DNA from: Minisyncoccota bacterium
GTDB lineage: Bacteria > Patescibacteriota > Minisyncoccia > Phycocordibacterales > JABAAK01
Direction: 5' to 3'
Assembly (NCBI GenBank): GCA_958295675.1
Contig: OY282360.1
Location: 658,026-722,025 of the forward strand
Length of the DNA: 64,000 nucleotides
Numbering within the stretch: position 1 is the first letter of the stretch; each line of letters begins with the position of its first letter. Under the pieces are notes generated by a model. The model did no database searches. It saw only the letters and a program-made list of their open reading frames with translations, and was not told where the DNA came from. A program made the translations under genes and the position numbers. Of this stretch, positions 5,968-56,965 are shown one piece after another.

Positions 5968-5973
5968 ACACAA

Positions 5974-6150: not shown

Positions 6151-6164
6151 AGGTAACAGAAACA

Positions 6165-6193: not shown

Positions 6194-6264
6194 GTTCTGT
6201 GTGTGTTCAGCACGCGTGTAATCAAGACTATATTAGACGCAAGCGTACCTCCACTACGACTTAG

Positions 6265-9963: not shown

Positions 9964-10229
9964 AATCGATTAGGAATTTACTATTACTAATTGAAATAAT
10001 AATTTCAATGGAGTACCCGCTAATTGCGGATACAGATCACACAAAAACAATAAAATGTGTTTGCTCTTCGTGTGATGATTATATTGTATACGCTCCGCAA
10101 ACAGTGTCAAAATGTGCTGTGGAAAAGATGCAATACAACGAAAAATATGTCCTGCTATCATAGACACCTGAACCGACCGCGAACAGGAGAAAAGTGATGC
10201 TGTGTGAACGATGTCCGCGGAGATAAAAA

Positions 10230-25958: not shown

Positions 25959-26819
25959 ATGGTAAAAATGACAGATACTGCCATTAGGCAAAAGATACAA
26001 AGAGAAGGACAGTTGTTAGAAAATAGAATATTGTGCGGTAATGCCTCAGATATAATTAAAGGTTTCCCATCCGCTTTCATTGATCTCACTGTTACATCAC
26101 CACCATACGATGAATTGAGAAATTACGAGGGATATAATTTTGATTTTGAGTCCATAGCACAAGAATTATTTAGAGTAACAAAAACTGGAGGAGTTCTTGT
26201 ATGGGTTGTGGGTGATAAGATAAAAAATGGAGACAGGAGTTTGACGAGTTTTAAGCAGGTAATCTTATTTCAAGAATTGGGATTCCGTGTTCATGATGTG
26301 ATGATCTATAAGAAAAAAAACACACCGTTCATGCGATCAAACGGATACACAAACTGCTTTGAATTTATGTTTGTGTTGAGTAAGGGAAAACCAGCAGTGT
26401 TCAACCCGATTCAAATAGACACAGTTAGACAGGGATTAGAAATGCTCACACACAACAAAGGTCCGGATGGTGTGAACAAAAAAATATTAAAGACATTGAA
26501 CAGCAAAAAGACAAAAACAAACATTTGGGAATATGCAGTCGGACTACATGGCTCAACAAGTGATAAAATCGCTTTTGAGCACCCTGCCATCTTTCCAGAA
26601 AAACTCGCAGAAGACCATATTCTCTCTTGGACCAACGAAGGGGATATAGTATTTGATCCGATGTGCGGTTCAGGAACTACCTGTAAAATGGCACAAAAAA
26701 ACAATCGGATTTATGTCGGTTGTGATATCTCAGAAAAATATGTAGAAATTGCTAAAAAAAGAATGGAATGTGTCACTTCCAACTTATCTTTATTTAATAA
26801 ATCTAATAGCTCTTCTTAA
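25959..26819 (+). CDS. Beta-class N6-adenine/N4-cytosine DNA methyltransferase (Type II)
   Basis: Motif IV SPPY (VTSPPYDE) precedes motif I FDPMCGSGTT. AT-rich. Confidence 0.85.
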   Translation: MVKMTDTAIRQKIQREGQLLENRILCGNASDIIKGFPSAFIDLTVTSPPYDELRNYEGYNFDFESIAQELFRVTKTGGVLVWVVGDKIKNGDRSLTSFKQVILFQELGFRVHDVMIYKKKNTPFMRSNGYTNCFEFMFVLSKGKPAVFNPIQIDTVRQGLEMLTHNKGPDGVNKKILKTLNSKKTKTNIWEYAVGLHGSTSDKIAFEHPAIFPEKLAEDHILSWTNEGDIVFDPMCGSGTTCKMAQKNNRIYVGCDISEKYVEIAKKRMECVTSNLSLFNKSNSSS

Positions 26820-27371
26820 AATTTTCACGTCATCTTTAAATCTTCCTATTCCTGTATTACAACTATCACAAATCCAACCTCGTATTTTCCCCGTTTTGTG
26901 ATTATGATCAATGACTACTTTACTGGTAATACCCGCAATAGTTTTTTTGTGGCAAATTGGACATTCAAATGGAATTCTATTCGGCTTTGTTTTCAAAAAC
27001 TTTTTCCTCTCCTTTGAATCAACAGGTACTCCGTCAATGTATCTTCTGCAATCTCTACAAGAGGGTCTTCTAACTGTTCTGTTGTCTTTTGCATTTTGAT
27101 TCTTGTCAAAATGAGAAGTTTTTAATAACTTATGACAAACATTGCAAATCTTTTTTTGAAAATCATCTCCAGTTTTACTAATATTAAAAAATGATATCAA
27201 CTCTCTTTTTATATTCACTCTTTGTCCATTTCTAACAAAAAATACGGAATATTTTTCTCCAATCTTATCCTCAACCATCCCAACATCGTTCTTTTTCAGT
27301 AAAATATTCTTGGAGAATTTCACATCTTTTTTCAGAAAAGCAAATCTTGATTTCTTCTTTTTTATTGTCAT
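26790..27371 (-). CDS. Putative HNH-family restriction endonuclease (Cys-rich), cognate of the 25959 methyltransferase
   Basis: VIDHNHKTGKIRGWICDSCNTG HNH motif plus CxxC pairs. Convergent and overlapping 30 bp with the methyltransferase. Confidence 0.55.
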   Translation of the reverse strand: MTIKKKKSRFAFLKKDVKFSKNILLKKNDVGMVEDKIGEKYSVFFVRNGQRVNIKRELISFFNISKTGDDFQKKICNVCHKLLKTSHFDKNQNAKDNRTVRRPSCRDCRRYIDGVPVDSKERKKFLKTKPNRIPFECPICHKKTIAGITSKVVIDHNHKTGKIRGWICDSCNTGIGRFKDDVKILRRAIRFIK

Positions 27372-27657
27372 AGCAAATTTTTCTATGAACCAGTAAAACT
27401 GGCATTTTGGCTATACTCCTTTGGTTGCTGTGTACAGCATACCAAATTGCAAGAAAGTCCGCTTGCACAAAAATTCCTAAAGATGCAGTGTTCGCTTCTG
27501 CCCAAACACGAGAAATATTTTTTGTGTTGTATATTACTAATGCAACCATAGATAATCGGTAGAGCACTTGAAGCACCCCGTCAGTTCATAGGGCTCTACT
27601 CTATGGTTGCGCTGGCGGGGTGCTTCATTTATAACGCACAACGAATAAACCATCCTG

Positions 27658-27746
27658 CGGAGAGGGTGGGATTCGAACCCACGGTGCGGTGTGACCCGCA
27701 CACTCGTACTCCAAACGAGCGCCTTCGACCACTCAGCCACCTCTCC
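27658..27746 (-). tRNA. tRNA-Ser (anticodon GGA), type II long variable arm
   Basis: GGAGAGGTGGCTGAGTGGTCGAAGGCGCTCGTTTGGAGTACGAGTGTGCGGGTCACACCGCACCGTGGGTTCGAATCCCACCCTCTCCG. Anticodon loop TTGGAGT. Confidence 0.85.
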
Positions 27747-33090: not shown

Positions 33091-33164
33091 AAATACCAAA
33101 AAACTTAACAAATAAATTTGCAGGATAACCACATAAGATTAACCACTCATTCAAAAAATGCTTG

Positions 33165-33764
33165 TTATTCATTATTCATATGTTGCATGGTCATTTTTCC
33201 GAAGTTTCCTGTGCCAACGAAAAGTCCTATTGGCTCAAGGATATTAACACGGTAAACATTCTGATAGTCAATAAGTGCTTGTTTAGTTTTTGGACCAAAA
33301 TAATATGTTTCATTACCAAGTGAACCAGCTCCTGTTGTTGATACTGTAAAACCTCTGGTGTTTAAGTATTTTTGGAGACGACGCACATCTTCACCAACTG
33401 ATCCAACGCTGAGTGTTCTTGTAAATTTACTGTTAGTATTGCCAAAATATTGACTGTTCGGTTTTGGTTTCTTGTATGCCTCCCACACTTCATAGGTACC
33501 GTCTCTGTGACTTCGTATTGGCTCATATGGTTGTGGTACCCCTTTGCTTTGATGACAATGTCGTTGATTGTACGCTGTGCCACCCCAACTACCACAATTT
33601 GTTCGGCAATAATGACACCCATCACCGGCAGTTCTACCAGGATGAGCATAGACGGGTTGTATTATACTCAATACAAATATACTGAAGAATAAAAGAAATA
33701 ACACTGGGGTAATGGTAATAACTGTATCTTTAGGTATTTTATTTGTAGAGTTGGTGGTAGTCAT
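33165..33764 (-). CDS. Secreted Cys/His-rich protein with a PG_binding_1-like domain paralogous to the N-terminus of the 6265 protein
   Basis: GEDVRRLQKYLN..YYFGPKTKQALIDYQ..ILEPIGLFVGTG versus GDDVRQLQRFLN..YYGPATARAVSKFQ..ILAPIGLTSGTG. Confidence 0.6.
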   Translation of the reverse strand: MTTTNSTNKIPKDTVITITPVLFLLFFSIFVLSIIQPVYAHPGRTAGDGCHYCRTNCGSWGGTAYNQRHCHQSKGVPQPYEPIRSHRDGTYEVWEAYKKPKPNSQYFGNTNSKFTRTLSVGSVGEDVRRLQKYLNTRGFTVSTTGAGSLGNETYYFGPKTKQALIDYQNVYRVNILEPIGLFVGTGNFGKMTMQHMNNE

Positions 33765-33995
33765 ATGCGTAATGCTACTACCCTTTCAAGAAATAATACT
33801 AAAATAATCATAGTCTGTCAAATGCTCTTTTTTACTGACTAATTAGGTAGATGTAGGATAAAATGCCCGACTTATTCGGGTGTTTCTAGACCAAATACCC
33901 GATTTTTTAGCGTTTTTTCGGGTGTTTTACCTCTCAGAACAATACTTGAAAAATAGTACACATCCCTTTCTTGTTTTGGCAAATCCATACCACCA

Positions 33996-34565
33996 TTAAA
34001 CAGTCTCTAAAAAGTATTGCTTTGAATCTGCTAATGTATTTTTTTCAACTTTCGCTGGTCCTTCATCATCTTCAAAGAAGTCAATTTTTTCTATCTTCAC
34101 TCTTTTGCAATTTCCGTCATTCAAATCTGTTTCGTATTTTTTCCATGCATGATATTTATGCACTTCTTGAATAAGATCTTTTGGTGTGTAATTACTGTAA
34201 TTATTAAAGGAATAATCAATTACTTCTCTGTCAATCTCGGAAAGATAATCCTCATCCACCTTTCCTTTGATTCGTACCATATCCCATATATTGTTTCTTC
34301 TGGACACTCGCCTCCACATCTTCTTACTCATCTCCAATTCCTGTTCAGATAAATATTCATTAGCATGATCTATCAAATTCGTTGTGCTTGACGGCACAGG
34401 ACCATTTCTTAACGCAAAATACTCTTCCCGCTGCAGCAATTCACTTCCGTATTTTCTCAACTTATACACATCAGCAATAACCAGCAACTTAACAAGTTTG
34501 ATGACATCAGCCCCCTTACGACCAAATTTGTTGAGTAAGTGGGCAATTTTTTGTATATTTTCCAT
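33996..34565 (-). CDS. Panacea-domain (DUF4065, SocA/PanA-like) protein
   Basis: LVKLLVIADVYKLRKYGSELLQREEYFALRNGPVP. Confidence 0.5.
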   Translation of the reverse strand: MENIQKIAHLLNKFGRKGADVIKLVKLLVIADVYKLRKYGSELLQREEYFALRNGPVPSSTTNLIDHANEYLSEQELEMSKKMWRRVSRRNNIWDMVRIKGKVDEDYLSEIDREVIDYSFNNYSNYTPKDLIQEVHKYHAWKKYETDLNDGNCKRVKIEKIDFFEDDEGPAKVEKNTLADSKQYFLETV

Positions 34566-34930
34566 AAATTGAAAATATGCTTTCTACACACATATAGTAT
34601 ACATACGCTTTATCTTTCGGTGTTTATTTTCAAGATATTTCTAAGGCACTGAAACAATGCAAAAATCAAGTATTTTTGGTATATACTTCACCTTAAACAT
34701 TCGATATTTTGATAAATAATCATTTTTCACACATTCAATAATACCTTGTATTTATTGCGATTTGTATACTACTATGATAAATAATGAAATTAGTCGGTGA
34801 AAATAATTACAATTTTTGTTTCGTAAAAAAGCCCGAAAGAGGAAATGTCTTGTTATATACCCTATCATTCAGTTTCTCCAAATCCAGCAAAATTTTTTTC
34901 CGTCTTGGGCTTCCTCCTGAGTTATAAATC

Positions 34931-35197
34931 TTATTGCTGTATTTCTTTAAGCGTTGCTCCACACTCAAAATAATCTCCTATCACCCCAACCATTCTTTCT
35001 GCCGACACAGCATCACCGCTTATAATATACTCATCATTATTTTGTGATTCAAATACATCGTCAACGATAATACTAGCGCCCCGTTTAATCTCTTCCATAA
35101 TTAATTGCGACAGAAAATCACGCCTTTCCTGTCTAAAAGAATCAGCTACAAACACAGTCATTGAAAATTTCCTTTCTACTATCTTTTTAGTTCCCAT
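34931..35197 (-). CDS. Small hypothetical protein
   Basis: 88 aa ORF in an AT-rich island. No motifs. Confidence 0.25.
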   Translation of the reverse strand: MGTKKIVERKFSMTVFVADSFRQERRDFLSQLIMEEIKRGASIIVDDVFESQNNDEYIISGDAVSAERMVGVIGDYFECGATLKEIQQ

Positions 35198-35318
35198 ATA
35201 TCTTTGTTTAACATTATTTTACCCTGTTTTTTCAGATTTTACTGAGCACTCCCAACTAAATGCTTCCATTTTTTCCCAAACAACTACCTCTTTACATCCC
35301 GCCTTCCAATCTACCCTC

Positions 35319-37553
35319 TCAAAATTGAAAATCAGACCATTTTTTCAAGGTGATATCCTGAGCAATTTTCCAAACACCACGCTCTTTTTTCACAAAACCA
35401 CCTTTAAACTTTTTATTTTCTCCCAACCACTTTTCTAACGCCTGTGCCCGAATTTGTGCTGATTCTCCTTTTGCGGTGAAACCACCCTTAGTATCAATCA
35501 CCCAAACATCGTCCTCTGTTTTTATAAACCAATCAGGAAAGAACAACCCGCCATCATGTCTCCTTACAGAAAAATGCTCAGAACCATTATCTCCATTCTT
35601 ATACCACCACTTAACCGATTCATTATCCTCAAGATATGTTATAAAATCCATTTCGTTCTGATTGCCTTTATTTATATAGCAGGGCGATAATGCACATTTC
35701 TCACTTTCTATCTCCTCATAAATACTCGTGTAAGAAACACTGCTCAACGGTATAGAAATATCCTTTTTACTCATTTTTCTTTTATCTTTCTCCTCTTCCT
35801 CCTTTGTCCGCACAGAAACATATTTCTCTAATGCTTTATTTATCACAGGAAGAAGGATACTGTTTGCCTTCCTGCTCAGATCATTCACCACACACGGATA
35901 ATACTTATTTTTATCCTTGATGCCAACATAACTTTCAAACCATACATTGATGGCTGATTTCAACTTTCCGTAGGATCGTGCGATATTTTTAAATTTGGTC
36001 TCTTTCTCCTGTTTGTGCAGTATTTCAATACATAACTTCTTATACAATTTCTCCACATCGTTACGAGACATCTTTTCTCCGAAACTATCTGCCTCTTTAA
36101 TGTCTTGTATAAATTTATCATAATCCCGTATATCCTGATCAACTATCAAATCTACATCCACATCTTCGCCAAAATCAAAACACGACTGAAAAGGTTTTTT
36201 CTTCTCAAGCATTTTGTTCGCAACATCAATAAAGGTAAACTGAAAGGTTTTCCCAAGATCGTTGTAACTGGTTCTTTGTGAGACAAAGGTTTCTAGCGGT
36301 ATCTGATCAATACCTTCCTTAATAAATGCATGGTGTATTGCCGCTTGATTCTCCCCTTGGTAGTTATCGTAACTTTCAATAATCTCATTTTTTGTATAAG
36401 TGGTATACAAGTATGACATATTTAATTTTGACTTCGTATGATGCCTACCTTCGGGCATTCGCAAAACTCTACCTAACACCTGAACCTGAAAGACAGGATC
36501 TTTTGTTTCCCGATACATCAATAACACCTGAGCCCTCGGACAATCCCAACCAGTTGCAGGCGCTTGCTTAAAAAGCAGAACATCAACACCGTTATTGTTG
36601 ATGGTGATGTTCCCCAAATTCACTTTCTCGTTATCAAGCCAAATGGCGATAGTATTTTCATGGATACCCATATCCTTCAGCGACTTGAGAACAATATCTT
36701 TCTTTTTCTCCTCTTCCTGATTCGCACGATCGTCGTTTGGCAGTTGGATCATCAGTAATGGATTCACATCTACACCCTCTTTTGCGTACAGACCAGCAAT
36801 CTCTGCTCGCTGTTTGATTGCCAATTTGAGAACATGTTCATCCAAGTCCTTGACCGGTCTTTTTCTGTCAGTAAAATCCTCCCGCGTCTGAGACTTGATT
36901 GACTCCTTAATGAGACCGGCGCGTACAACATCTTCGTGTGAAATATTCACATCTATATTGCTTTGGTTTCTATGTGTCGCAGTGATATGCATCACTATTT
37001 TCGGATCAATCAATCGTATCTCTTCCTCGGCAAGTGAAGTACTGCTACTAGTATGCGCTTCATCAATGATGAGAATGATGGAACGATTTTCTGCCTTTGT
37101 TCTTTGAATCATGCCGTCCCATGTTATTTCCTGCTCACTCTCCCTCCTCAGTTTTCTCCCCTCCTTATTTCTCGCCTTAATCTTTGACCAGTTAAAAAAC
37201 AGTATTTCGTTTTGATTCAACACTTTCTCTCTGCTCAAACTGTCCAGTCCGGTCACTTCAACTTCAGACGCACCGCCATAGTACTCATTAAACTTATTTC
37301 TGCTCTGAGAAGCCAAATCTCCATCACTGGATCCGCCAATACTGACCCACAAAAAGGCAAAATCAACATTTAACAATTCTGGTGCATTCACAAGATCCCG
37401 CACAAACTGAGCCATCATAACGGTCTTACCGGATCCGGTCGGTGATTGAAACTTGATATCTTGCCTTGTGTCCCTGTCCCACCTGTGCAGTACATCCTTT
37501 TTCAATCTTTCTATTGCATCAATCTGAAATGGTTTTAGTATTGTGTTTTTCAT
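35319..37553 (-). CDS. res: Type III restriction enzyme Res subunit (SF2 helicase plus C-terminal PD-(D/E)xK)
   Basis: SPTGSGKT, IIDEAH, and a C-terminal ..VWVIDTKGG nuclease-like motif. Confidence 0.8.
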   Translation of the reverse strand: MKNTILKPFQIDAIERLKKDVLHRWDRDTRQDIKFQSPTGSGKTVMMAQFVRDLVNAPELLNVDFAFLWVSIGGSSDGDLASQSRNKFNEYYGGASEVEVTGLDSLSREKVLNQNEILFFNWSKIKARNKEGRKLRRESEQEITWDGMIQRTKAENRSIILIIDEAHTSSSTSLAEEEIRLIDPKIVMHITATHRNQSNIDVNISHEDVVRAGLIKESIKSQTREDFTDRKRPVKDLDEHVLKLAIKQRAEIAGLYAKEGVDVNPLLMIQLPNDDRANQEEEKKKDIVLKSLKDMGIHENTIAIWLDNEKVNLGNITINNNGVDVLLFKQAPATGWDCPRAQVLLMYRETKDPVFQVQVLGRVLRMPEGRHHTKSKLNMSYLYTTYTKNEIIESYDNYQGENQAAIHHAFIKEGIDQIPLETFVSQRTSYNDLGKTFQFTFIDVANKMLEKKKPFQSCFDFGEDVDVDLIVDQDIRDYDKFIQDIKEADSFGEKMSRNDVEKLYKKLCIEILHKQEKETKFKNIARSYGKLKSAINVWFESYVGIKDKNKYYPCVVNDLSRKANSILLPVINKALEKYVSVRTKEEEEKDKRKMSKKDISIPLSSVSYTSIYEEIESEKCALSPCYINKGNQNEMDFITYLEDNESVKWWYKNGDNGSEHFSVRRHDGGLFFPDWFIKTEDDVWVIDTKGGFTAKGESAQIRAQALEKWLGENKKFKGGFVKKERGVWKIAQDITLKKWSDFQF

Positions 37554-38386
37554 GTTTGTTCTTTACCTTTTCTCTTTTTTTCTCGTTCATACAAATTTAA
37601 CACTGTGGTGTGATTTTTTTTGTTTAAAATATTCGCTATTGCTGAATAAGTCATTTTTTTTTCATCTCTCAAAAAAACAACAATTCGAGACCTCTCATCA
37701 ACAACCTCCCTCTTCCTGCTTGGACCAAGAATAGCAGAAAGGCTAATATCTTTATTTTGTATGATTCCTTCCATCAATGAGGAGAGGCTTTCATCTGATC
37801 CACTGCCTATTAATCCAAGAGAATATGCATCATTTATATAAGTACATATATCTGACAATATTGATTGTGCCTTGCTTCTTGCTTGATTGAGATTACGAAG
37901 GTTACTATTACCTTCAAAATGTAAAATATTGTTTCTATGATTTTTCAAATCTATGCTCATTTTAATTAAAAATTCTCTTATCTTTCTAGTATTTTTATTA
38001 CTAAGATTCTCCAAATATTCTTCTATATTTTTGGTTTCTAATGATCTTCCTAGTGACCGATCATTCTTATAAAAACCGATATCTCGTAAAATTTTAAAAA
38101 CAAAACCTTCAAATGCTAAACACAGTGGAGCAATAATAAATGTATAGTCTTTCACTTCACCACGTAATGAATGATGCTTCATGAAATGTTTTTCCATAAC
38201 AAGATAATCTAGAATATACTTTCTTATTTGTGGACTTAAATACAACTTATTCCTCCTCCCTCCAAAAATCTCTTTGAATTGAATACCAGCATCACCTCTC
38301 TCTGTTTTTTTATATATATCCTGATCTATCCTGTTGTGACCGAAGCATTTTTTTATCTTTTTCTTTAAAAAATTAAATATTTTCAT
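37550..38386 (-). CDS. HEPN-like (R-N-x3-H) protein with a C-terminal DnaA domain-IV-like HTH, embedded between mod and res
   Basis: KNHRNNILHFEG (Rx4H) and C-terminal SRIVVFLRDEKKMTYSAIANILNKKNHTTVLNLYERE, similar to DnaA ..GGRDHTTVLHA. Confidence 0.45.
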   Translation of the reverse strand: MKIFNFLKKKIKKCFGHNRIDQDIYKKTERGDAGIQFKEIFGGRRNKLYLSPQIRKYILDYLVMEKHFMKHHSLRGEVKDYTFIIAPLCLAFEGFVFKILRDIGFYKNDRSLGRSLETKNIEEYLENLSNKNTRKIREFLIKMSIDLKNHRNNILHFEGNSNLRNLNQARSKAQSILSDICTYINDAYSLGLIGSGSDESLSSLMEGIIQNKDISLSAILGPSRKREVVDERSRIVVFLRDEKKMTYSAIANILNKKNHTTVLNLYEREKKRKGKEQT

Positions 38387-38387
38387 A

Positions 38388-40325
38388 CTACAAATTTAAA
38401 TTTTTATACACCCGCAGTATCGGCTCAGGTATGTCTTCCACTGAAACATTTTCATATTCCGCATAGTCGTTTTTCCAATCATCAGTACTTCCATGCGAAA
38501 ATATATATAACTTCACTTCCATTTTTTCCAAAATTTTCTTTTCTAAATCTTCAAGTTTTTTTAAGTTCTCCCGAAAGTAGATACCGACATATTTATCTAC
38601 CTCATCAGTAAATATCTGATACCAGTCATTTTTCTCTAATTCAGTAAAAGTATTTTCTTTCAAAGCAATCACATGACCGGCTTCATGGGTAAATTCTAAC
38701 CTTTGCCTATCAGGGACACGGTCTACATGCTCCACATCAACAAATTCCGTCTTCAAGTATTCCAAGCTGCCGCCCAAACCTTCCACCTTCTCACCGCTTC
38801 CTTTTTTCTTATATCCTTTCATCACTTTTTTTATTCTTGGCTGACATACACCTTCTGCAACACCACCATGTCCGTTACCGTTGTTATTTTCATTGTTCGT
38901 ACAGAGAATAAACTGACGATTGCCGCCGTCTTTTTTGTTTAATTCCAAAACCGCATGTCCGGCTGTTCCAGATCCAGCAAAAAAATCTAAAATGACCGCT
39001 TCTTTTTTATCACTACTCAAAATATCCAAAATGTCCAAAACTGCAAAAATGGACTTCGGATAATCAAAAGAATTTCTCTTTCCTAAAATTTTGTCAACAA
39101 GGACCGTTCCATGAGAAGAGGCATCATATTTTGGATCTATCCAAACTGTTTTTGCTTTTCTACCTTGTTTGATACGATCTTTCATATAAACTACATAACC
39201 ACTTCTACCTTCTTTGATCACAATATCCCCCCTCTCTACTGCCTGCATTAAAGAAGGTTTGGTTTGACGCCACACGCGTTTTCCACCTGCATTATCAATA
39301 GGTAAAATTTCAATCAAACCATCATCTTTCTGTACATCTATTTTTCCTCTTTTTGGATCATAGTATATTGGATAATATGAATTTGGTCTCTCCTCTGGTG
39401 TAGATAGCCCACCACTTCTCCTAAAGGGAAGTAATCTATATTTGGAAATATCGTCCTCAAATTTAAACAACCCTTCTTGTTCATCTGTTAATGGAAGATT
39501 GCTTATTACCGCTTTTTCTATATTTTTTGCATATACTAACCAATACTCGTGACTTGTTGCAAAAAATTTATTCGTTGTCCTGCCTCGTGGATTGCTTTCA
39601 ACAACCAAAAAACCAATTCTATTTTGTTCAAGAAAAATGTCATCCATAAGCAGTCCTAATGTAAAAAGTTCATAGTCATCAATCGTTGTGACAATCAATC
39701 CATCATCTTTGAGCAAGTGTTTCGCTAACCACAACCTTTTTGTCATGAATGATAACCATTTACTATGTCTAAACTGGTCATCTTTTTCTACATAACTATT
39801 GTTATAAACCCAACTTTGATTACCTGTGTTATACGGCGGATCAATGTAAATAACATCAATCTTACCTTTGTGTGTGTAGTTCAGCACCTGTAATGCATGA
39901 TAGTTATCACCCTCTATCATAATGTGCTTTTGTTCACCTTCTTTGCCGGCGACACTCATTTCAGAAACTGACTTCAATATCGGCGCCTCCCTCTTACACC
40001 GCTCAACAACTTCCTCCAGCTTATCCTCCCACACAAGCCCATATTTTCGCTGCTTGCTCAACAACTGCAATTCTTTTATTAGTTGCTCTTTTGTATAATC
40101 CGAATAATCCCGTCGTGCAGGCTGTCGACGCGATAGATCCGACACGAGACCTTTTTCTTTGATCTGTTTTATGTGCTCCGCTGTATACCGCCTATCTTTC
40201 CGTGTCCCGACTCTATCAGCAATCACCAGTCCCTGCTCATCCCAGTTGCGCAGAGTATCCTCATGCACACCGAGCATTTCTGCTACTTCACCGATTTTAT
40301 AATATTTTTCATTCTCTTTCTTCAT
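38388..40325 (-). CDS. mod: Type III R-M Mod methyltransferase with an N-terminal MerR-type HTH
   Basis: YKIGEVAEMLGVHEDTLRNWDEQGL (MerR HTH). VIYIDPPYNTG (motif IV). DFFAGSGTAGHAV (motif I). Confidence 0.8.
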   Translation of the reverse strand: MKKENEKYYKIGEVAEMLGVHEDTLRNWDEQGLVIADRVGTRKDRRYTAEHIKQIKEKGLVSDLSRRQPARRDYSDYTKEQLIKELQLLSKQRKYGLVWEDKLEEVVERCKREAPILKSVSEMSVAGKEGEQKHIMIEGDNYHALQVLNYTHKGKIDVIYIDPPYNTGNQSWVYNNSYVEKDDQFRHSKWLSFMTKRLWLAKHLLKDDGLIVTTIDDYELFTLGLLMDDIFLEQNRIGFLVVESNPRGRTTNKFFATSHEYWLVYAKNIEKAVISNLPLTDEQEGLFKFEDDISKYRLLPFRRSGGLSTPEERPNSYYPIYYDPKRGKIDVQKDDGLIEILPIDNAGGKRVWRQTKPSLMQAVERGDIVIKEGRSGYVVYMKDRIKQGRKAKTVWIDPKYDASSHGTVLVDKILGKRNSFDYPKSIFAVLDILDILSSDKKEAVILDFFAGSGTAGHAVLELNKKDGGNRQFILCTNNENNNGNGHGGVAEGVCQPRIKKVMKGYKKKGSGEKVEGLGGSLEYLKTEFVDVEHVDRVPDRQRLEFTHEAGHVIALKENTFTELEKNDWYQIFTDEVDKYVGIYFRENLKKLEDLEKKILEKMEVKLYIFSHGSTDDWKNDYAEYENVSVEDIPEPILRVYKNLNL

Positions 40326-41101
40326 ATTGAATGATAAAGTAGAATCGATGTGTGTAGTATAAACTCCGCATCTTCTTTTGTTGGATTCTGACCAGTGCCA
40401 CTAGTATGTTGACCTCTAAAATTAGCGAACCGTGAGCAAATTTCAAAAAGTTTTTTCTCATCGTCAACACTCTTGCCAATATATGATATTACTGCACTGG
40501 GATTTTCTTTCATCTGATTCAAAAATTTTCCTAAGCTCGGCTTTTGGTCTTTAGGATAATACTTATTCTTAATCTTTGTCTCCAGTGCATCAACACACTT
40601 AGAAACTGTTTTTGTAAGATCAGGGTCTTTTTTGTAAAAAGATTGCCATGCTTCTCTTAACGATGCATCTTCATTCAATACTTCCCTTGAGGCAGCTTCC
40701 AATCCGTCAGACACTCGTCGTTCTAAACCAACCTGCTCTGTCCCGATATGCGCAACCTTATACGCATGCCCACCCTCACACAAAATACTTTCTAAGGCCA
40801 TAGATTTTTCTGGTGTAGCATGATTTTGCACAAAAAAGTTCAATACTTCAATAACAAGATCAGATTCACTAAAAAAAGAAGAAATGGATCCAGGAATGAT
40901 ACATCTAAGAGAAATCTGCGCTTCCTGAATAAAAGATGATTTAAAAATAAAATCACCCCAAAGACCATAATGAAAAGTGTCACTGTATTCACATGTAACA
41001 ATCCATGTCACTATTGGTTGATGAAAATGTGCAGGAAAATCAGATGTTAATCCTTTCTTAAATCTCTTCTGATGACTTTGAGTTATAGGATTATAAACCA
41101 T
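40322..41101 (-). CDS. Hypothetical protein, first gene of the Type III operon (4-nt overlap with mod)
   Basis: 259 aa, AT-rich, tightly overlapped gene chain. Confidence 0.45.
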   Translation of the reverse strand: MVYNPITQSHQKRFKKGLTSDFPAHFHQPIVTWIVTCEYSDTFHYGLWGDFIFKSSFIQEAQISLRCIIPGSISSFFSESDLVIEVLNFFVQNHATPEKSMALESILCEGGHAYKVAHIGTEQVGLERRVSDGLEAASREVLNEDASLREAWQSFYKKDPDLTKTVSKCVDALETKIKNKYYPKDQKPSLGKFLNQMKENPSAVISYIGKSVDDEKKLFEICSRFANFRGQHTSGTGQNPTKEDAEFILHTSILLYHSI

Positions 41102-41364
41102 ATACTCCCATCGTAACAGATGGTATATATTTATGTCAAGTTTCCTAATTTACCAAAGTTGGAGGATTCGCCGGCGGATTGCACATGATTCTCCCGACCC
41201 ACAACAACGCATTTTCTTTTTTTGATTCATTCGTCGCATTTTTCCACGCGCTGTGCGGACACACCATTCGTTTCATCCCGTGCAGTGCATGGAAAGCACT
41301 CTACGATGCGCGCGCAACCAGCCACACGAACGGTAGTGAGTGTATATCTGCTTATTCTACCCAG

Positions 41365-41437
41365 TCCACCCGCCTGGACTCGAACCAGGAACCGCGTGTG
41401 TATAAGACACGTGCTCTACCAATTGAGCTACAGGTGG
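41365..41437 (-). tRNA. tRNA-Ile (anticodon UAU)
   Basis: CCACCTGTAGCTCAATTGGTAGAGCACGTGTCTTATACACACGCGGTTCCTGGTTCGAGTCCAGGCGGGTGGA. Anticodon loop CTTATAC. Confidence 0.8.
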
Positions 41438-45295: not shown

Positions 45296-45651
45296 GGGGG
45301 TGTCAGGCTTTGACAGTTGACATGCCCTGTGAATGGAATGCGTGGTAGTGAGAGGTCACTATAATCACCGAAACCTTGCAAATAAACTTGCACAGATGTT
45401 CAACAGAACACCTGCCCTCGCGTACGCATAACAATGCCCGTGAGGCATCCGCAGGATGATTCTCACTAATCCAAACGGATGTAAGATAATGTGAGAAACA
45501 CGGCGTGCTGTACTACGCTTCAAACAGCATACGAAAAGTAAACGAACGAAGCGGTTTTTGGTCTGTGAGCGAACCTATCGCCCACTACGCCACGAAAACA
45601 TTCTTCGCAGTGTCAATATGGACGGGAGTTCAATTCTCCCCACCTCCACCA
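45296..45651 (+). ncRNA. ssrA: tmRNA (ssrA)
   Basis: 5' GGGGGTG pairs with the 3' CACCTCC-A-CCA, including G3-U70. T-arm GGGAGTTCAATTCTCCC. Internal tag ORF ..gca aat aaa ctt gca cag atg ttc aac aga aca cct gcc ctc gcg tac gca taa (ANKLAQMFNRTPALAYA*). Adjacent to smpB. Confidence 0.85.
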
Positions 45652-45751: not shown

Positions 45752-46468
45752 TCAGCAATACTGCTGTAGATGCGATTTAAAAAATGATAGTGCGTTAACT
45801 AAAGATTCTCTTTTCATTGGCTTAAAAAACTCTCCCCTATGAATCGGTCTATCTACTTTTCTATCTCCTTCTAATAAGGTGATTATATTGAGTGTGTAGT
45901 CAAAGTAAGACATAAGGGTGTGGGTGCTGGTGCTACCAAATTTTACCTCTTTTAAAATCTCTGAATAATCGCCACCAAGCTGACTCTCAAGTTGAAAGAG
46001 CACAATCTCCGCATCAGGAGAAATTTCTTTTACAAATGAGCCATCAATTAAAATTCTCTTTATCATCGCGTTTTCTGTGTATGATTTACATTCAATGGCC
46101 ATTACGAGATTACCTCGCACATAAACAGGAACATCTATGTTAAATTTGTACGAATAATCTTTTATGTTTTTTCGTATGTGTTCTGCTATTTCGTTTTCAA
46201 TAGTATCTAAATAATCTTTTTTAAGCGGGACAGTGACAGATCCCTGCTCGGTGCTCAGATCATCAATATTGCCCACCATATCAAACCATGCTCGCTTCAC
46301 AAGACCTCGTGCAAATGCTTCAACAAAAGAACCCTTAATAGAACGCTCTATACCGCCCGTTGCGCGTTTTGTATCCTGGACCTCGGAACCTATTCTCTTA
46401 ACTAATGAGTTATATGCAGCTAATAAATCATCAATGGTTGGAATTTCCGGTAAATCTTCTATATTCAT
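45752..46468 (-). CDS. Putative Type II restriction endonuclease (PD-(D/E)xK)
   Basis: NIDVPVYVRGNLVMAIECKSY. 4 nt downstream of a methyltransferase gene in the same orientation. Confidence 0.5.
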   Translation of the reverse strand: MNIEDLPEIPTIDDLLAAYNSLVKRIGSEVQDTKRATGGIERSIKGSFVEAFARGLVKRAWFDMVGNIDDLSTEQGSVTVPLKKDYLDTIENEIAEHIRKNIKDYSYKFNIDVPVYVRGNLVMAIECKSYTENAMIKRILIDGSFVKEISPDAEIVLFQLESQLGGDYSEILKEVKFGSTSTHTLMSYFDYTLNIITLLEGDRKVDRPIHRGEFFKPMKRESLVNALSFFKSHLQQYC

Positions 46469-46471
46469 ATA

Positions 46472-47647
46472 TTAAAACAACGAGCTTGCTAATCGTTTCT
46501 CCGCAACATTACAATATTCCGTTGATATATCCACACCGAGATACCTTCTATCAAGCATACGAGCAACGCTGGTTGTTGTACCCACACCATTAAAAACATC
46601 CAATATGATGTCATTTTTGAAACTGAAAAGTTTGAGACATCGCGATACAAGATTTTCAGGAAACATTGCAGGGTGCCCATATTCTTTCATATTCCTTTCA
46701 GGTGCAATTGACCACTTCGCAACAACCCACTTTTTAAACTCTTCAGCCGTTATATCAATATCTTCAGTTTTTCCAGAGTGCTTCAAATCACCTTTACAAA
46801 AAACTTCAATAAACTCCCATGTGTATTTCAGATATGGACTACTCGGACTCTTCCAACTACCCCACGCAGTATACTTGCAGTTATAGTTATTTTTTTCCCA
46901 AAGTATTTCCCCTTTCCACAGCATCCCAATATCCAACAAATGTTTAGAGATAATATGATGTGTCGGTATATAATCTGAAAACAGCGGCTGTACATTAATA
47001 ATCATTCTTCCGCCATATTTTAGGACTCGTTTTGTTTCTTCTAAAATTGCAAATAACTGATTGAAATAATCATCCCACTTTTTATCATCTGCACCATTCT
47101 CATATTCAAGTCCGAAATTATACGGCGGTGAGGTAATCATCACATCAATACAATTATTTGGTAACTTCCTGAGTACATCCAAACTATCCGCACATACTAT
47201 TGCATTCTCATATTCAAACGGCAAGATATTTTCTTCTATGCTTTTTTCTGTGTTTCTAATACTGGAGGTTCTTTTTTCCGATTTTTGTTTTCTGTTCTTT
47301 ACCTTTCTCTCTTTATTAAAATCAACATACACTCTTTTCCCACTCTTGAGCCCGTATGATCCGATACTGTTAACCGCCTCCACAAGATCATCTATAGCAC
47401 TGAGAACCTCTTCCTCTCCGTTGTTCGCTTTTACCTCCAGTGCTCTGCTTTTGAACCGTTCAAAATCAAGATTATTCACAAACAGCTTCACCTCATATGA
47501 TCCCATTGGCTCAAAATAAATATGTCTATTAAATTCATCCAAGAAAGATTTGACAACGCGTTTGCTTTTCTCATCAAATTCTTTGGTTGTCTTCAGAGTA
47601 ACCTCCTTATATTCCATATATATAGTATATATCAGAAAATTACACAA
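46472..47647 (-). CDS. Beta-class DNA methyltransferase with an about 150 aa N-terminal extension
   Basis: VMITSPPYNFG (motif IV) and LDVFNGVGTT (motif I). Confidence 0.8.
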   Translation of the reverse strand: MCNFLIYTIYMEYKEVTLKTTKEFDEKSKRVVKSFLDEFNRHIYFEPMGSYEVKLFVNNLDFERFKSRALEVKANNGEEEVLSAIDDLVEAVNSIGSYGLKSGKRVYVDFNKERKVKNRKQKSEKRTSSIRNTEKSIEENILPFEYENAIVCADSLDVLRKLPNNCIDVMITSPPYNFGLEYENGADDKKWDDYFNQLFAILEETKRVLKYGGRMIINVQPLFSDYIPTHHIISKHLLDIGMLWKGEILWEKNNYNCKYTAWGSWKSPSSPYLKYTWEFIEVFCKGDLKHSGKTEDIDITAEEFKKWVVAKWSIAPERNMKEYGHPAMFPENLVSRCLKLFSFKNDIILDVFNGVGTTTSVARMLDRRYLGVDISTEYCNVAEKRLASSLF

Positions 47648-47812
47648 TATGTGTTACTTTCTCACACCTATTTGCTTTTCCCTGCTATGAAGTGGCTTAC
47701 CATGATCTTTTAAAATTTTGTAAGCAACATCTTTAAAGGAGTTCATATATATAATGGGGCAATATATCACCCTATAGTGTAAAAATCTATGAATGAATTC
47801 CCCTAAATTTCT

Positions 47813-48613
47813 TTATAAGGAAAGTAGAGTTTTTATATAAAGAGAGTCATCAAAATTTTCCTGTTTTATTAAGGCAAAATAACCATTATTAATGCCTGCC
47901 CTTTCAAGAACATCTTCAAATTCTCTACTATCCAATCTGCAAATAACTTCAAATAGGTATGGAAAAATGATTGATACGGCGTTTATTCCAGATATCCTGC
48001 GGTGTATAGGAGAAAATATCCCAGTATTGCCTGATTTCGACATGTCAAATTTTTTGTACATTGAAAAAAGGAGATTAATATTTTTCTCAATATCACCAGA
48101 AGATAATTCGCATATTATTTTTTCCCTATACGGTCCAATGTTAATATGAGAAAACTTTTCTGATAAATCAAGTTTCAATATTAAAAATAATATAAATCTT
48201 CTAATCTTTTCTAAATCAATATCATTAATTATCCCATCTCTTAAATTACTATTAAGAAAGTCGCCAATCCTCATTAGGCGCCCATATTCTTCATCATCAG
48301 TTATAATATTAATATCCCCTTTCCCAATATTTTTTATAAATTCGAGAAAATATTTTTCATCTCCAGAAAATTTATTATCACAGTCAGCACAAAAAGTGTC
48401 TTTCATATATGGAAGATTGTTTGATTGAGTATATTTTGTGCTTCCATCTGCCATTATTATAGTTCCCCGTTTATCCTGAGAGTTCGGGTTGTTTTCATCA
48501 ATACCACAAATATATTTCCTGAATGCTTTCGATAATATATGTGCTTTAATGAGGGGTCTTTCTTTCCTACATAAAAAACAAATGCCAAAATCTCCTCTTC
48601 TATTTTTATTCAT
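47813..48613 (-). CDS. Hypothetical protein with an HNH-like CxxC..AHI motif
   Basis: GICFLCRKERPLIKAHILSKAF. Confidence 0.3.
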   Translation of the reverse strand: MNKNRRGDFGICFLCRKERPLIKAHILSKAFRKYICGIDENNPNSQDKRGTIIMADGSTKYTQSNNLPYMKDTFCADCDNKFSGDEKYFLEFIKNIGKGDINIITDDEEYGRLMRIGDFLNSNLRDGIINDIDLEKIRRFILFLILKLDLSEKFSHINIGPYREKIICELSSGDIEKNINLLFSMYKKFDMSKSGNTGIFSPIHRRISGINAVSIIFPYLFEVICRLDSREFEDVLERAGINNGYFALIKQENFDDSLYIKTLLSL

Positions 48614-48711
48614 ATTAATAGCTGATTATATCACAAACGCCAAATTGTAGTGCTTGAAAAATACCTGAAAATAGAATACAATACCGCAGGTTTCCTGATA
48701 GGGAGAAACGG

Positions 48712-49341
48712 ATGAGGAAGAATAGGAAGAAAAGGTTGGAAGAGTGGGACAAACACACACCCGAAGAAAAATTTGAGATTGTCTTCGGGAGCAATGATGT
48801 GTTCCATGAAAGCTTGCAAGAATGGAAGAAAAACGGCGGAAAAGGGAAGAATGTTCCTGATTTTGCTGATAGAACCACAGCGATTGGAAAACGACGATCA
48901 AGGATATACCAATTTGGCATATTGGTATGGGACAGATGGTCGCTACTGCCGGAAAACAGAATTTTCAACATCCATCTACACCGATGGTGGAGATCTGAAG
49001 AAATACTCGTCAAAGGACTCCATTCGCACAATATGCTTTTCTGCATCGGCATAACACTCAAAGGAAGTGTGTGGGAATTGGTAGACAAACATCCCAAGCA
49101 GAAAATTGCGAAAGTGGGTTCACTGATCGTGGTTGCTAATCCGGATGATGACGAATTAGAAAACGCAAAACTGGTACACAGATACTTCTTCCGGTGGTAT
49201 ACTCAGAAAGTCCGACATTCCGTGCTCATTCCGAAACGGTTTGCAGGAAAAACATGGACACTGTTCATAACAGGACCGGAGATACGGAAGAAGGGAGAAA
49301 GCAACGTGGTCCTCATCAAAGGATTTGACGAGGAGACGTAG
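48712..49341 (+). CDS. Hypothetical protein
   Basis: 209 aa ORF followed by a strong intrinsic terminator. Confidence 0.4.
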   Translation: MRKNRKKRLEEWDKHTPEEKFEIVFGSNDVFHESLQEWKKNGGKGKNVPDFADRTTAIGKRRSRIYQFGILVWDRWSLLPENRIFNIHLHRWWRSEEILVKGLHSHNMLFCIGITLKGSVWELVDKHPKQKIAKVGSLIVVANPDDDELENAKLVHRYFFRWYTQKVRHSVLIPKRFAGKTWTLFITGPEIRKKGESNVVLIKGFDEET

Positions 49342-54479: not shown

Positions 54480-55308
54480 CATCAATCTCCTCTTTTTTCT
54501 CACGAAACACTTTCGGAGTAAACACCACAAACCCGTTACCCAACCTCTTCAGATTTTTATTTTCTATAAAATCAAGGTACGGCTTTCTATACTCGCCGTT
54601 CAGTTTCTTCGGTTTTTCAAACACTTCCTGATTCGGCACAGCGTATTCAATATCTATCGACTCACCCTGCAACTGTTGTTTACTTGTCCTCGGTCGGCGC
54701 ACCTCCCTACTCTGTGTGCGTTTTTTAACCTGATAGTTAAGCATGCGTCCTTTATAATGAACTTGTATATCTGCATTCTTTCTATCAAGCTCGGTAGACA
54801 TATTCACCGTACCGGCACCAAACACCTGTTCGGCAACATACCCGGCGTGTATCTGTGTAATGATGCTCGCCCAAGTCCGGTAAATTCTCGCAGGCAGTCC
54901 TCTATAAAAACAATCAGGACATATTGTTGTCTTATCCCGAAACTCCTCTATATCCTGTTCGTATTTTTTACTGTATCGTTTGTAAAATGTATCAAAGTTA
55001 ACATACTCACGCTTATCCCAGTAAATCTCGTACATTAAATCAAGTGCCTGTATATTTCTCGGCAAGTCCATCTCCACGATTTTAATCGGCTGGTACTTTT
55101 TCCTGTACCCAGCCAAATCCACACCCTCAAGGAATGAGTCAAAAGATTGTGTGTCGTTTATTGTATACATACTACTAAAAATATATCTCACACCTTGAGT
55201 TGCGGGTTGCATAGATATAGATAAAGTATAGCAAATAAACAAAATTATGTCTTTGTGTCGAATATCTTGATTTACAGCAAGATGTCTGCTAAAATACAAA
55301 TACAACAA
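54472..55308 (-). CDS. Hypothetical protein convergent with and overlapping the methyltransferase; candidate cognate restriction endonuclease
   Basis: 278 aa. The true start is probably an internal Met (MQPATQ.. or MYTIND..). Contains ICPDCFYRG. No clear nuclease motif. Confidence 0.35.
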   Translation of the reverse strand: MLYLYFSRHLAVNQDIRHKDIILFICYTLSISMQPATQGVRYIFSSMYTINDTQSFDSFLEGVDLAGYRKKYQPIKIVEMDLPRNIQALDLMYEIYWDKREYVNFDTFYKRYSKKYEQDIEEFRDKTTICPDCFYRGLPARIYRTWASIITQIHAGYVAEQVFGAGTVNMSTELDRKNADIQVHYKGRMLNYQVKKRTQSREVRRPRTSKQQLQGESIDIEYAVPNQEVFEKPKKLNGEYRKPYLDFIENKNLKRLGNGFVVFTPKVFREKKEEIDAI

Positions 55309-55534
55309 GTGATAAAATACTTATATATCAGATTCATACCCATACACAGTAATAAACAACAAGCTTGAGCCTGTTTTCCAAAAAATCCAACAGGCTGCAA
55401 AACCAGAAAGATTTAATGCTGCCTTTCTGCAAAAACTTGGTTTCGCCAGCTCAAATTATCGAGCAATCGTACCCCTGTTTAAAAAACTTGGTTTCATTAA
55501 TGAGGATGGGTCCCCCACCGAATATTATGATAGG

Positions 55535-55939
55535 TTGCGCGATGCAACAGACTGGCAATATGTGCTTGGGGAAAGAATAAAAGAATTGTACAAGGATCTC
55601 TACAATATAGACACTGAAATCCATCAAAAGAATCAAGATGAAATAAAGGGGGCTGTTAACCGTGTTACTGGAAAAGATAAAAAAAGTGTTGACAGATATG
55701 TCTTAACTTTCTCATCATTAAGCAATATGGCAAAGTTTGGGGTCTCACCGAAAACAACAAAGGTACCAGAAAGTGCAGCAAACACCAAAGAAAAACAAAA
55801 AAAGGACGAACACTCTGTCAAAGGAAGTTTAGATGGAATCAGTTTAAATCAAAACATCCAAATACAACTACCAATGACCAAAGACACTGCGGTTTACAAT
55901 GCTATCTTCCAGAGCATACGAGAAAATCTGTTGGATTGA
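55535..55939 (+). CDS. Hypothetical protein. The frame is open from 55316 without an in-frame ATG, so the start is uncertain.
   Basis: The conserved-looking upstream peptide ..AAFLQKLGFASSNYRAIVPLFKKLGFINEDGSPTEYYDRL continues in frame into the TTG-start ORF. Confidence 0.35.
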   Translation: MRDATDWQYVLGERIKELYKDLYNIDTEIHQKNQDEIKGAVNRVTGKDKKSVDRYVLTFSSLSNMAKFGVSPKTTKVPESAANTKEKQKKDEHSVKGSLDGISLNQNIQIQLPMTKDTAVYNAIFQSIRENLLD

Positions 55940-55940
55940 T

Positions 55941-56531
55941 ATGAAAAAAACAAACAAAAAGTATATGGATGATCTCAAAAGAATGACTTTCAACGGAATT
56001 CTGGCAATAGAAAGTCTCAATGCTTTATCAAAGAATGGAATTGATATAAGAGTGCTTGAAAAAAAGGAAGAAAGGGAAGAGCAGGAAAATGATTTTAGCC
56101 CAATTTTACTAAATAAAGCAAGAAGTATGAGCAGAGTTTACGAAATGTTTTTCTGTATGGAGAACGCTGCCAGATCACTGATAGAAGAGCGTCTTTCGGA
56201 ACGAATGAACGAAAATTGGTGGGAAACCTGTGTTTCAGAAAACATAAAAAAATCTGTCGAAACCTTAAGAAAGAAAGAAGAAAAAAATAAATACCACACC
56301 CAAAGAAATTTACATCCAATTGGGTACACAATGTTTGGAGATCTTGAAAAAATTATCATCAATAATTGGGAAAATTTTTCCGATATCTTTCCCGAACAAT
56401 ATTGGATATCGTCTCGTTTTAATGATTTAGAATTATCAAGAAATATCATCATGCACACAGGGACACTTCCAGAAACAGAAATAGGAAGAATTGAGGGAAT
56501 AGTTAGAGATTGGATAAACCAAACTGGGTAG
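55941..56531 (+). CDS. HEPN-like (R-N-x3-H) protein
   Basis: ELSRNIIMHTG motif at the C-terminal end of an alpha-helical protein, in a defense-island context. Confidence 0.45.
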   Translation: MKKTNKKYMDDLKRMTFNGILAIESLNALSKNGIDIRVLEKKEEREEQENDFSPILLNKARSMSRVYEMFFCMENAARSLIEERLSERMNENWWETCVSENIKKSVETLRKKEEKNKYHTQRNLHPIGYTMFGDLEKIIINNWENFSDIFPEQYWISSRFNDLELSRNIIMHTGTLPETEIGRIEGIVRDWINQTG

Positions 56532-56865
56532 TTTTATACAAAGCAATTTGTAAGTATTTCCAGTTTTGAATCTTTGCGACCGAAAAGTGCAAAAAAGATA
56601 AAACAGGGAAAACAGAGCGAAACATTCCATATCTCGCGTAAGAGTGAAAAATAGCAGAGTGTTTATGTATACAACTGCTTCGCTTTTTTGAATAGGTTCG
56701 AAACTGCGGGGTGAAGTGACGGTACCCAACCAAACGAACACCCTGTTACTATAGACCGTCCTGCCAGTACCTCCATAACTCCTACAGTACCATGACGAGG
56801 GCACGGGATTGGACGGCGGATTGAAAGGAAAAAGAAGTAAATATATCTACAATCTATACTACCTA

Positions 56866-56965
56866 CTACCGCAAACCCTTCAGTTTCGCCCGCAGTATCG
56901 CAACTTCAAGTGCTTTGTCGGAAGATGCTATCTTTTCCTCAAGCGCGGCAATAAGATGGCGGCGA
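56866..56965. repeat. About 100 bp direct repeat (copy A) encoding the C-terminal RHLIxALEEKIxSSDKxxEVAILRAKLKxLR module
   Basis: About 85% nucleotide identity with 58203-58302. Confidence 0.7.

Follow-up and report, generated by a model that had tools for sequence, protein, structure and literature searches.

Variable additional genes were described in 2013 for restriction–modification (R-M) operons of all four types (PMC3632139). Many HEPN families are described as embedded in such operons, the case treated in detail being PrrC (PMC3710099): the R-M complex masks this latent ribonuclease (RNase), which is fired when a phage inhibits restriction (PMC3710099, PMC12707154). The 2013 survey of HEPN proteins describes RnlAB as acting independently of DNA-level restriction (PMC3710099). 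A guilt-by-embedding study of Hma, BREX, DISARM and Type I R-M hosts in RefSeq genomes tested nine embedded candidates and confirmed phage defence for seven; HEC-09, an embedded protein with a helix–turn–helix (HTH) and an NYN domain, is among the nine, and the study reports phage defence by an embedded DUF3644-HEPN protein, HEC-08, that is lost on mutating the histidine of its Rx4-6H motif (bioRxiv 10.1101/2024.01.29.577857). Here we analyse a stretch of 64,000 nucleotides (nt; hereafter the window) of contig OY282360.1 from a Minisyncoccota bacterium (Patescibacteriota), which holds a Type III R-M operon with two additional genes: orf278, encoding an RnlA/LsoA-type HEPN protein, between mod and res, and orf259, ahead of mod. 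The position between mod and res proved to be a conserved slot with changing contents, and we give roughly even odds (a probability of about 0.5) to the reading that the operon acts as a scaffold on which accessory defence genes are carried, with orf278 as an embedded, PrrC-like RNase effector.

Like prrC in the Type Ic EcoprrI operon (hsdM–hsdS–prrC–hsdR), orf278 is a HEPN-superfamily gene nested in the same orientation within an R-M operon. Unlike prrC, it has a Type III host, in which it lies between mod and res; its HEPN domain falls in the RnlA/LsoA rather than the PrrC/RloC branch, and a DnaA-type HTH is found instead of the ABC-ATPase regulatory domain, so that orf278 is not of PrrC type and has the embedding logic alone in common with it. 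With the guilt-by-embedding cassettes the locus shares same-orientation genes in a modification-based defence operon and RNase-type effectors (HEPN and NYN), and orf259 may be a distant relative of one of the candidates of that work, PDC-S32. The set described in the study differs from the present locus, which combines a Patescibacteria Type III host, one precisely bounded mod–res slot and a MerR-HTH fusion on Mod.

The operon consists of four closely spaced genes on the minus strand, in the order orf259, MerR-HTH::Mod, orf278 and Res (Table 1); with lengths of 259–744 amino acids (aa), significant family matches and conserved homologues, these open reading frames (ORFs) are not a chance pattern. 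A preliminary description of the locus had all four genes overlapping by 1–4 nt. Read from the sequence, the orf259/mod and orf278/res junctions are indeed ATGA overlaps of 4 nt, but mod and orf278 do not overlap, a 1-nt spacer lying between stop and start codons (TAG-T-ATG). A promoter-like site precedes orf259, which has a GGGAG Shine–Dalgarno sequence ahead of it, and at three sister loci (L002, L003 and L004) the homologues of orf259 also have a conserved TTGACA box and GGAGGT-N-ATG ahead of them; a scan for terminators found no terminator-like site at intergenic positions within the operon block, which, together with the promoter-like site at the 5′ end, fits a single transcription unit. 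A palindrome over the −10 region, CCATCtgttacGATGG, was considered as an operator and rejected, as it is not conserved in the sister loci. In most respects the results support the preliminary description, which had recognized the Type III mod–res pair and the MerR-HTH fused to Mod (both now matched by Pfam and PADLOC), as well as the 278-aa protein wedged between mod and res; it had also raised the possibility that orf259 or orf278 might belong to ordinary housekeeping families, and neither matched one.

Table 1 Features of the Type III R-M operon and of the island that holds it (positions in the window)
Feature	Position	Strand	Evidence and remarks
orf259 (259 aa), leader gene	40322–41101	−	ORF
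Type III Mod methyltransferase, 645 aa, N-terminal MerR-type HTH	38388–40325	−	ORF, Pfam, PADLOC
MerR-type HTH of Mod	about 40158–40301	−	Coordinates checked
orf278, RnlA/LsoA-type HEPN with C-terminal DnaA-domain-IV-type HTH	37550–38386	−	ORF, Pfam, alignment
RNNILH motif of orf278	37919–37936	−	Alignment
Bac_DnaA_C match of orf278	37589–37762	−	Pfam
Type III Res, 744 aa, SF2 helicase with C-terminal PD-(D/E)xK-like motif	35319–37553	−	ORF, Pfam, PADLOC
Promoter-like TTGACA-N18-TACGAT, TG-extended	41110–41139	−	Consensus scan, 10/12 matches; consensus match only
tRNA-Ile, anticodon TAT	41364–41437	−	ARAGORN; 262 nt upstream of orf259; island boundary
AT-rich genomic island, GC 0.33–0.39	about 33100–41150		Composition profile, Pfam, synteny with L004 and L007
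orf88, 88-aa ORF without homologues	34931–35197	−	Island, downstream of res
SocA/Panacea antitoxin-domain protein, 189 aa	33996–34565	−	PF13274 at 1e-14; downstream of res
Terminator-like hairpin after the Panacea gene	33866–33902		Terminator prediction
199-aa protein, N-terminal hydrophobic segment, PG_binding_1	33165–33764	−	Island, downstream of res

The core of the operon is a genuine Type III R-M pair that looks functional, with catalytic motifs recognizable in the sequences of both Mod and Res. Mod combines Pfam matches to MerR_1 (2.6e-10, aa 9–56) and N6_N4_Mtase (6.4e-25) with a match to the PADLOC MTase_III profile (1.6e-79), and its motifs run IDPPYNTG (aa 161–168; DPPY at 162–165), a variable target recognition domain (TRD) and DFFAGSGT (aa 447–454; FAGSGT at 449–454), the order that marks beta-class N6A/N4C methyltransferases. 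Res, matched by ResIII (Pfam, 3.9e-16) and REase_III (PADLOC, 2.4e-18), carries TGSGKT, DEAH and P673-D674...D687-T-K689, the last of these invariant in an alignment with the sister Res proteins (76–80% identical); it thus has the superfamily 2 (SF2) helicase and C-terminal PD-(D/E)xK-like motif, encoded downstream of mod, of a Type III restriction subunit, and at 744 aa is shorter than the matched REase_III profiles (809–898 positions). The two genes are not an adjacent pair, an 837-nt gene lying between them and a leader gene ahead of mod. Among the sister operons, Mod is near-identical except for a divergent TRD.

Relatives of Res were sought in one genome per GTDB species. More than 546 were found, overwhelmingly in Patescibacteria (Kaiserbacteria, Saccharibacteria and Paceibacteria), the nearest (79% identity) being that of L007, from a Candidatus Kaiserbacteria metagenome-assembled genome that has dcd–tRNA-Ile–island synteny in common with the window, which probably comes from a Kaiserbacteria-like genome. 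We then mapped the end of mod and the start of res in 143 related loci, mostly from Patescibacteria. The gap is at most 120 nt in 130 of these, with a MerR-type N-terminus on Mod in none of the 130, and is larger in 13 (one of these gaps is 144 nt without an ORF, and L092 is a duplicate of L007). The premise of the preliminary description that a classic Type III system consists of mod and res only makes additional genes look more surprising than they are, since such genes are documented for R-M operons of all types (PMC3632139) and embedding is an established principle in the discovery of defence genes (bioRxiv 10.1101/2024.01.29.577857). All seven distinct loci with a Res at least 61% identical to that of the window (the window itself, L002, L003, L004, L007, L008 and L080) have an insert, 0.74–1.7 kb long in the other six, and the MerR HTH is present on Mod in each of the six insert-bearing loci of this sub-clade whose Mod N-terminus is on the contig.

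What fills the slot differs from locus to locus. Where the window has its RnlA-like HEPN and HTH protein, other members of the sub-clade have a 239-aa unknown (L002), a 309-aa unknown (L003), several small ORFs in a 2.5×-coverage assembly (L004), an NYN protein (L007; 3e-13) or DUF3800 proteins weakly related to each other (L008 and L080); at more distant loci, without MerR, the inserts are a Bro-N protein (L066), a member of DUF3644, which is a HEPN family (L116; 6e-56), and unknowns (L155, L171 and L067). A test for hidden homology among the genes inserted in L002, L003 and the window found none. What is conserved is the slot, with contents that are swapped, and not orf278: the gene order of the preliminary description recurs in L002, L003 and L004 as leader–MerR::Mod–X–Res, but orf278 does not recur with it.

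The limits of the slot are sharp. A TAG-N1-3-ATG arrangement after mod is kept in five loci, and DNA similarity between sister loci ends at the ATG after the mod stop codon and restarts precisely at the res ATG. In L007, the NYN insert opens with a copy of about 45 nt of the 5′ end of res (6901–6945 versus 8001–8045; MKKITLKPFQ...), a duplication that looks like the footprint of an insertion at the original coupled res start. Because conserved flanks lie on both sides of the slot, homologous recombination between related operons is a plausible route of exchange. Homologues of the L171 and L067 inserts are found directly downstream of res at other loci (L103, 5309–6025; L019, 10305–11702; L148, 11082–11555), so that accessory genes attach to this Type III lineage in more than one place.

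Two side observations concern these related operons. The L067 locus (4688–10202), from Gracilibacteria, has intact genes only under genetic code 25 (TGA = Gly); under this code mod and res are separated by a 473-aa gene, whose product may bear a D...E-x-K nuclease-like motif at its C-terminus. Other defence-type genes flank sister operons (L002, 5427–7191; L003, 10930–12045 and 17188–18120): RloB accompanied by an AAA_15 ATPase, an AAA_15 ATPase placed between Mod and the homologue of orf259, and, just after res, an Mrr-type restriction enzyme.

A word-indexed homologue search with orf278 returned only orf278 itself and a profile search added little, and an exhaustive HMMER scan of 1.84 billion representatives gave 36 matches in two sets, one of proteins of about 190–200 aa covering orf278 aa 20–196 and one of DnaA_C-type HTH proteins covering aa 200–275. 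In an alignment of the N-terminal domain across 11 family members, D60, D80, P87, E93, G113, R151 and H156 are invariant, the last two bounding the R151-N-N-I-L-H156 motif (RNNILH) that the preliminary description had rightly taken to be HEPN-like. The HEPN signature is Rx4-6H with a polar residue after the Arg (PMC3710099); all 11 sequences have Rx4H, with Asn or His after the Arg, and the all-helical model of orf278 resembles HEPN structures. Within the superfamily, the N-domain family profile matches the HEPN (Dmd-binding) domain of LsoA (PDB 5hy3; E = 1.4e-8), and 9 of the 11 members match PF19034 (RnlA-toxin_DBD). RnlA has four essential residues, R255, E258, R318 and H323 (PMC8266594), the last three of which have equivalents kept in orf278 as E93, R151 and H156.

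An alignment-based AlphaFold2 (AF2) model was used for the structure of orf278 (single-sequence AF2 gave a predicted local distance difference test score (pLDDT) of 43). Most of the HEPN domain is modelled with confidence, the block-mean pLDDT being 70–94 over aa 31–150 and 171–190 and falling to 62–74 over aa 151–170, the stretch with R151–H156. HEPN structures rank top in a Foldseek search with the model, at E-values that are not significant, and comparison with a viral structure library gave no meaningful match. At the C-terminus, the HTH that the preliminary description had likened to DnaA domain IV scores above the Pfam cut-off for Bac_DnaA_C (2.2e-8; 34.5 bits versus 31.5; aa 209–266) and keeps a DnaA-like ‘NHTTVL’ segment. 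The start of the gene is the ATG right after the mod stop codon, and homology to the full-length relative P0009 (see below) runs from residue 20, upstream of the 231-aa database version. Judged by sequence and model, orf278 joins an RnlA/LsoA-type HEPN domain, in which Rx4H is intact and the conserved Glu is present, to a DnaA-domain-IV HTH. RnlA/LsoA provide the closest sequence profile and fold for its N-terminal domain, with the Glu and Rx4H in common; unlike them, orf278 is without the two TBP-like N-terminal domains (NTD/NRD) and without an adjoining RnlB-type antitoxin gene (its neighbours are mod and res), has Leu at the R255 equivalent, so that the set of four essential residues is not complete, carries an additional C-terminal HTH and is embedded in an R-M operon. 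DnaA-box-like sites were also considered as an operator for the HTH and rejected (TTWTNCACA occurs 11 times versus 7.4 expected, unclustered in the locus).

The only other full-length relative, with both HEPN and DnaA_C, is P0009, a protein of 292 aa with 26% identity to orf278 (E = 5e-18). It is encoded in a Type I operon (L087) in the order SMC-like ATPase–MerR::HsdM–P0009–HsdS–HsdR–YgjP, and the N-terminus of this HsdM is homologous to that of the window Mod (41% identity, E = 2e-16); with P0009 behind MerR::HsdM and orf278 behind MerR::Mod, the pairing of a MerR-methyltransferase with a HEPN-HTH protein thus occurs in two R-M types. A further protein, P0042 (316 aa), has a different helical N-domain, with Rx4H (KRNNIIHD), joined to two HTHs, one sigma-r4-like and one DnaA_C, and P0017 and P0032 have the same two C-terminal HTHs; HEPN and DnaA_C fusions may form a broader class.

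Both C proteins and HTH-bearing methyltransferases such as M.SsoII autoregulate R-M operons. Mod resembles the latter in having its HTH at the N-terminus and differs from them in that the fused HTH is of MerR/excisionase type and is found in the insert-bearing sub-clade only, and in that autoregulation is predicted. The MerR HTH alone is fused to the methyltransferase, without the C-terminal coiled-coil/effector-binding domain that MerR-family regulators have, and this N-terminus also resembles PADLOC mad1 (2e-12). By analogy with free-standing and fused HTHs in other R-M systems, it probably autoregulates the operon; this is the simplest role for it. In L118 a free-standing gene for a 56-aa HTH_17/MerR-like protein (98–268) occupies the same place, directly upstream of a canonical mod–res pair. 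The strict co-occurrence of the MerR-type HTH with an insert leaves room for a role in effector docking or control.

These comparisons suggest a mechanism in which the logic of PrrC and EcoprrI is carried over to a Type III system. The orf278 protein would be a latent endoribonuclease whose synthesis is translationally coupled to that of Mod and Res. In the absence of infection it would be kept inactive, most likely by Mod and Res themselves; as no RnlB-like gene is adjacent, and as EcoprrI restrains PrrC, the R-M complex would be the most economical restraint. Release would come when restriction is disabled or evaded by a phage, or when the phage shuts down expression in the host, and the released protein would cut RNA and arrest the infected cell, adding a second, abortive or bacteriostatic layer to restriction. 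On the same proposal, orf259, in a leader slot whose occupant also varies, would be a further candidate among the accessory defence genes.

Several observations weigh against orf278 as an effector of this kind. On its own, orf278 scores 16.3 bits against PF19034, under the Pfam cut-off of 27; Leu90 stands at the position of R255, the residue essential for substrate binding in RnlA, where about half of the family has Lys; and the HEPN domain takes up about aa 30–190, with the N-terminal domains of RnlA absent. The C-terminal domain is poorly modelled by AF2, and the proposal leaves the role of the DnaA-type HTH unexplained, there being no DnaA-box enrichment in the window. The correlation between MerR and insert stems from a single clade, and one event in its ancestry may account for it. 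Four HEPN-only relatives (P0010, P0011, P0013 and P0014) are not beside R-M genes, which shows that dependence on R-M is not intrinsic to the domain family. The RNase activity and toxicity of orf278, its interaction with Mod and Res and its activation by phage are predictions from sequence and from analogy with described systems.

An alternative that takes up some of the same evidence is that orf278 is an autonomous hitch-hiker, a self-contained defence or toxin cassette embedded for co-transfer and co-expression only and uncoupled from Mod and Res. It would be in keeping with inserts that are unrelated and swapped between sister operons, with families wedged into one locus and placed just downstream of res in others, and with HEPN-only relatives away from R-M systems; Payne et al. 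also find that most embedded systems occur in non-embedded form too and work alone (bioRxiv 10.1101/2024.01.29.577857). We consider this possible, if not the likelier account: the slot has no antitoxin or sensor partner gene beside orf278, both of the two full-length HEPN and DnaA_C proteins lie directly behind a MerR-tagged methyltransferase, in two R-M types, and the insert adjoins its neighbours closely enough at either end for translational coupling. The reading as an embedded effector can also be extended, more tentatively, to a form that we think rather unlikely: MerR-HTH-tagged methyltransferases (Type III Mod and the HsdM of L087) would be a portable platform, with the R-M complex as antitoxin and sensor for the plugged-in effector; orf278 would be the first ‘restriction guardian’ RNase described for a Type III system, an RnlA-type HEPN protein in which the R-M complex has taken the place of RnlB and to which a DnaA-type DNA-binding domain has been added; and the mod–res junction would be a recombination-exchangeable slot in Patescibacteria.

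The place of orf278 directly ahead of res, its HTH above the Pfam cut-off with the DnaA-like ‘HTTV’ segment kept, and the missing R255 equivalent could point instead to a C-protein-like controller that times res against methylation through the HTH, with the HEPN domain as a dimerisation or sensor module. A pure regulator is improbable, however, because sister slots hold non-HTH proteins (NYN, DUF3800 and unknowns), 130 canonical relatives do without an insert and every family member keeps the catalytic Rx4H and Glu; Mod, moreover, already carries a fused HTH, and the locus shows no repeated operator resembling DnaA boxes. Of the layers that the preliminary description had thought the inserted genes might add, a toxin or abortive-infection one is best supported, and a purely regulatory one fares less well. 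Very improbable, finally, is a toxin–antitoxin arrangement in which the Panacea protein serves the HEPN toxin as antitoxin, with no part for the R-M proteins in its control. Its gene is on the same strand, with a terminator-like hairpin after it and none predicted between res and it, and, with a locally built hidden Markov model (HMM), Panacea genes were found in the window and 3 of 11 insert-bearing loci versus 3 of 151 canonical ones (and also in L006 and L087, outside that count), but this enrichment is circular, the HMM having been trained on the same loci, and the loci come from one island lineage. The gene also lies about 3 kb from orf278, with res and orf88 between, whereas PanAT pairs are normally adjacent, and in L002, L003 and L004 it is on the opposite strand with its own neighbours. 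The Panacea genes of related loci are at 7861–8538 in L002, 18529–20840 in L003, 18330–19073 in L004, 6209–6700 in L006 and 1916–2404 in L087; that of L053 (10436–10954) is directly downstream of res.

The other additional gene, orf259, had been called hypothetical in the preliminary description, and it has no match in Pfam, PDB sequences or PHROG; a search of JGI metagenomes with the family gave none either. Six homologues were found (45–54% identity by BLASTP, 51–57% in a MAFFT alignment), and the family has an invariant C-terminal motif, F-R-x-x-H-T-x-G-x-G...E-D-x-x-F-I-L-H-T-S-I-L (R229, H232, G235 and H250). Five of the seven family members match PDC-S32 of PADLOC (best E = 2.2e-6), the match of orf259 itself being weak (E = 0.0023 over 168 aa); PDC entries are untested candidates chosen by embedding in BREX, DISARM or Type I R-M (bioRxiv 10.1101/2024.01.29.577857). 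The family thus appears to be uncharacterised and a PDC-S32 relative, distant at most. A relationship of orf259 to HEPN was considered and rejected (hhalign probability 1.5%; the R-x2-H of its C-terminal motif is not canonical HEPN). Three of the homologues precede MerR::Mod–X–Res, with an AAA_15 ATPase intervening in L003; of the others, one is convergent with and abuts a DpnII-type R-M system and two lie among hypothetical genes. As the sister operons can have other leaders (399-aa and 166-aa proteins in L007, a trypsin-like peptidase in L080), orf259 is an optional accessory and no core subunit.

The embedding principle is already in the literature; nothing is overturned by this locus, and specialists will not be surprised in principle. 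What appears to be new is a Type III host with an insert exactly between mod and res, an R-M-embedded RnlA-branch HEPN protein that is without the RnlA N-domains or antitoxin and is fused to a DnaA-type HTH, and the clade-wide association in Patescibacteria of MerR-HTH::Mod with a variable effector slot; a literature search, which was not exhaustive, found no paper on a Type III mod–res insert, an RnlA-type HEPN-HTH protein or the MerR/slot association. The results suggest that a widespread Patescibacteria Type III lineage evolved a precisely bounded mod–res slot, possibly with a second slot ahead of mod, and that the effectors exchanged in such slots include HEPN and NYN RNases, DUF3800 proteins and unknowns. 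Guilt-by-embedding is thereby extended to Type III systems, with about ten uncharacterised proteins nominated as defence candidates. Compact layered defence is of interest in Patescibacteria (the candidate phyla radiation, CPR) because their genomes are tiny and have few recognised defences beyond R-M, and an RnlA-type RNase without a cognate antitoxin gene offers a testable case, comparable to PrrC, for R-M complexes replacing antitoxins.

The operon lies in a genomic island between recG and tRNA-Ile/dcd, together with orf88, the SocA_Panacea gene and the gene for the peptidoglycan (PG)-binding protein, whose match to a YHYH motif is weak and sub-threshold (19 versus a 30-bit cut-off). The AT-rich block beside the tRNA-Ile gene, pointed out in the preliminary description, stands out clearly in the composition profile, GC outside the island being about 0.45–0.56 on either side. 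No direct repeats and no att-like duplication of the tRNA end were found at the island flanks. A tRNA-Ile gene, 92–97% identical, also precedes the related islands of L002, L004 and L007, marking a recurrent hotspot. Isoleucine tRNAs with a TAT (UAU) anticodon are uncommon in bacteria, in which AUA is usually read by a modified CAU tRNA. Elsewhere in the window there are more AT-rich stretches (GC 0.34–0.39), at 26001–27000, 46001–49000 and 55001–57000, which may be additional islands; the first is beside a tRNA-Ser gene (27657–27746), and the second comes just after the tmRNA gene (45296–45651, tag ALAYA*).

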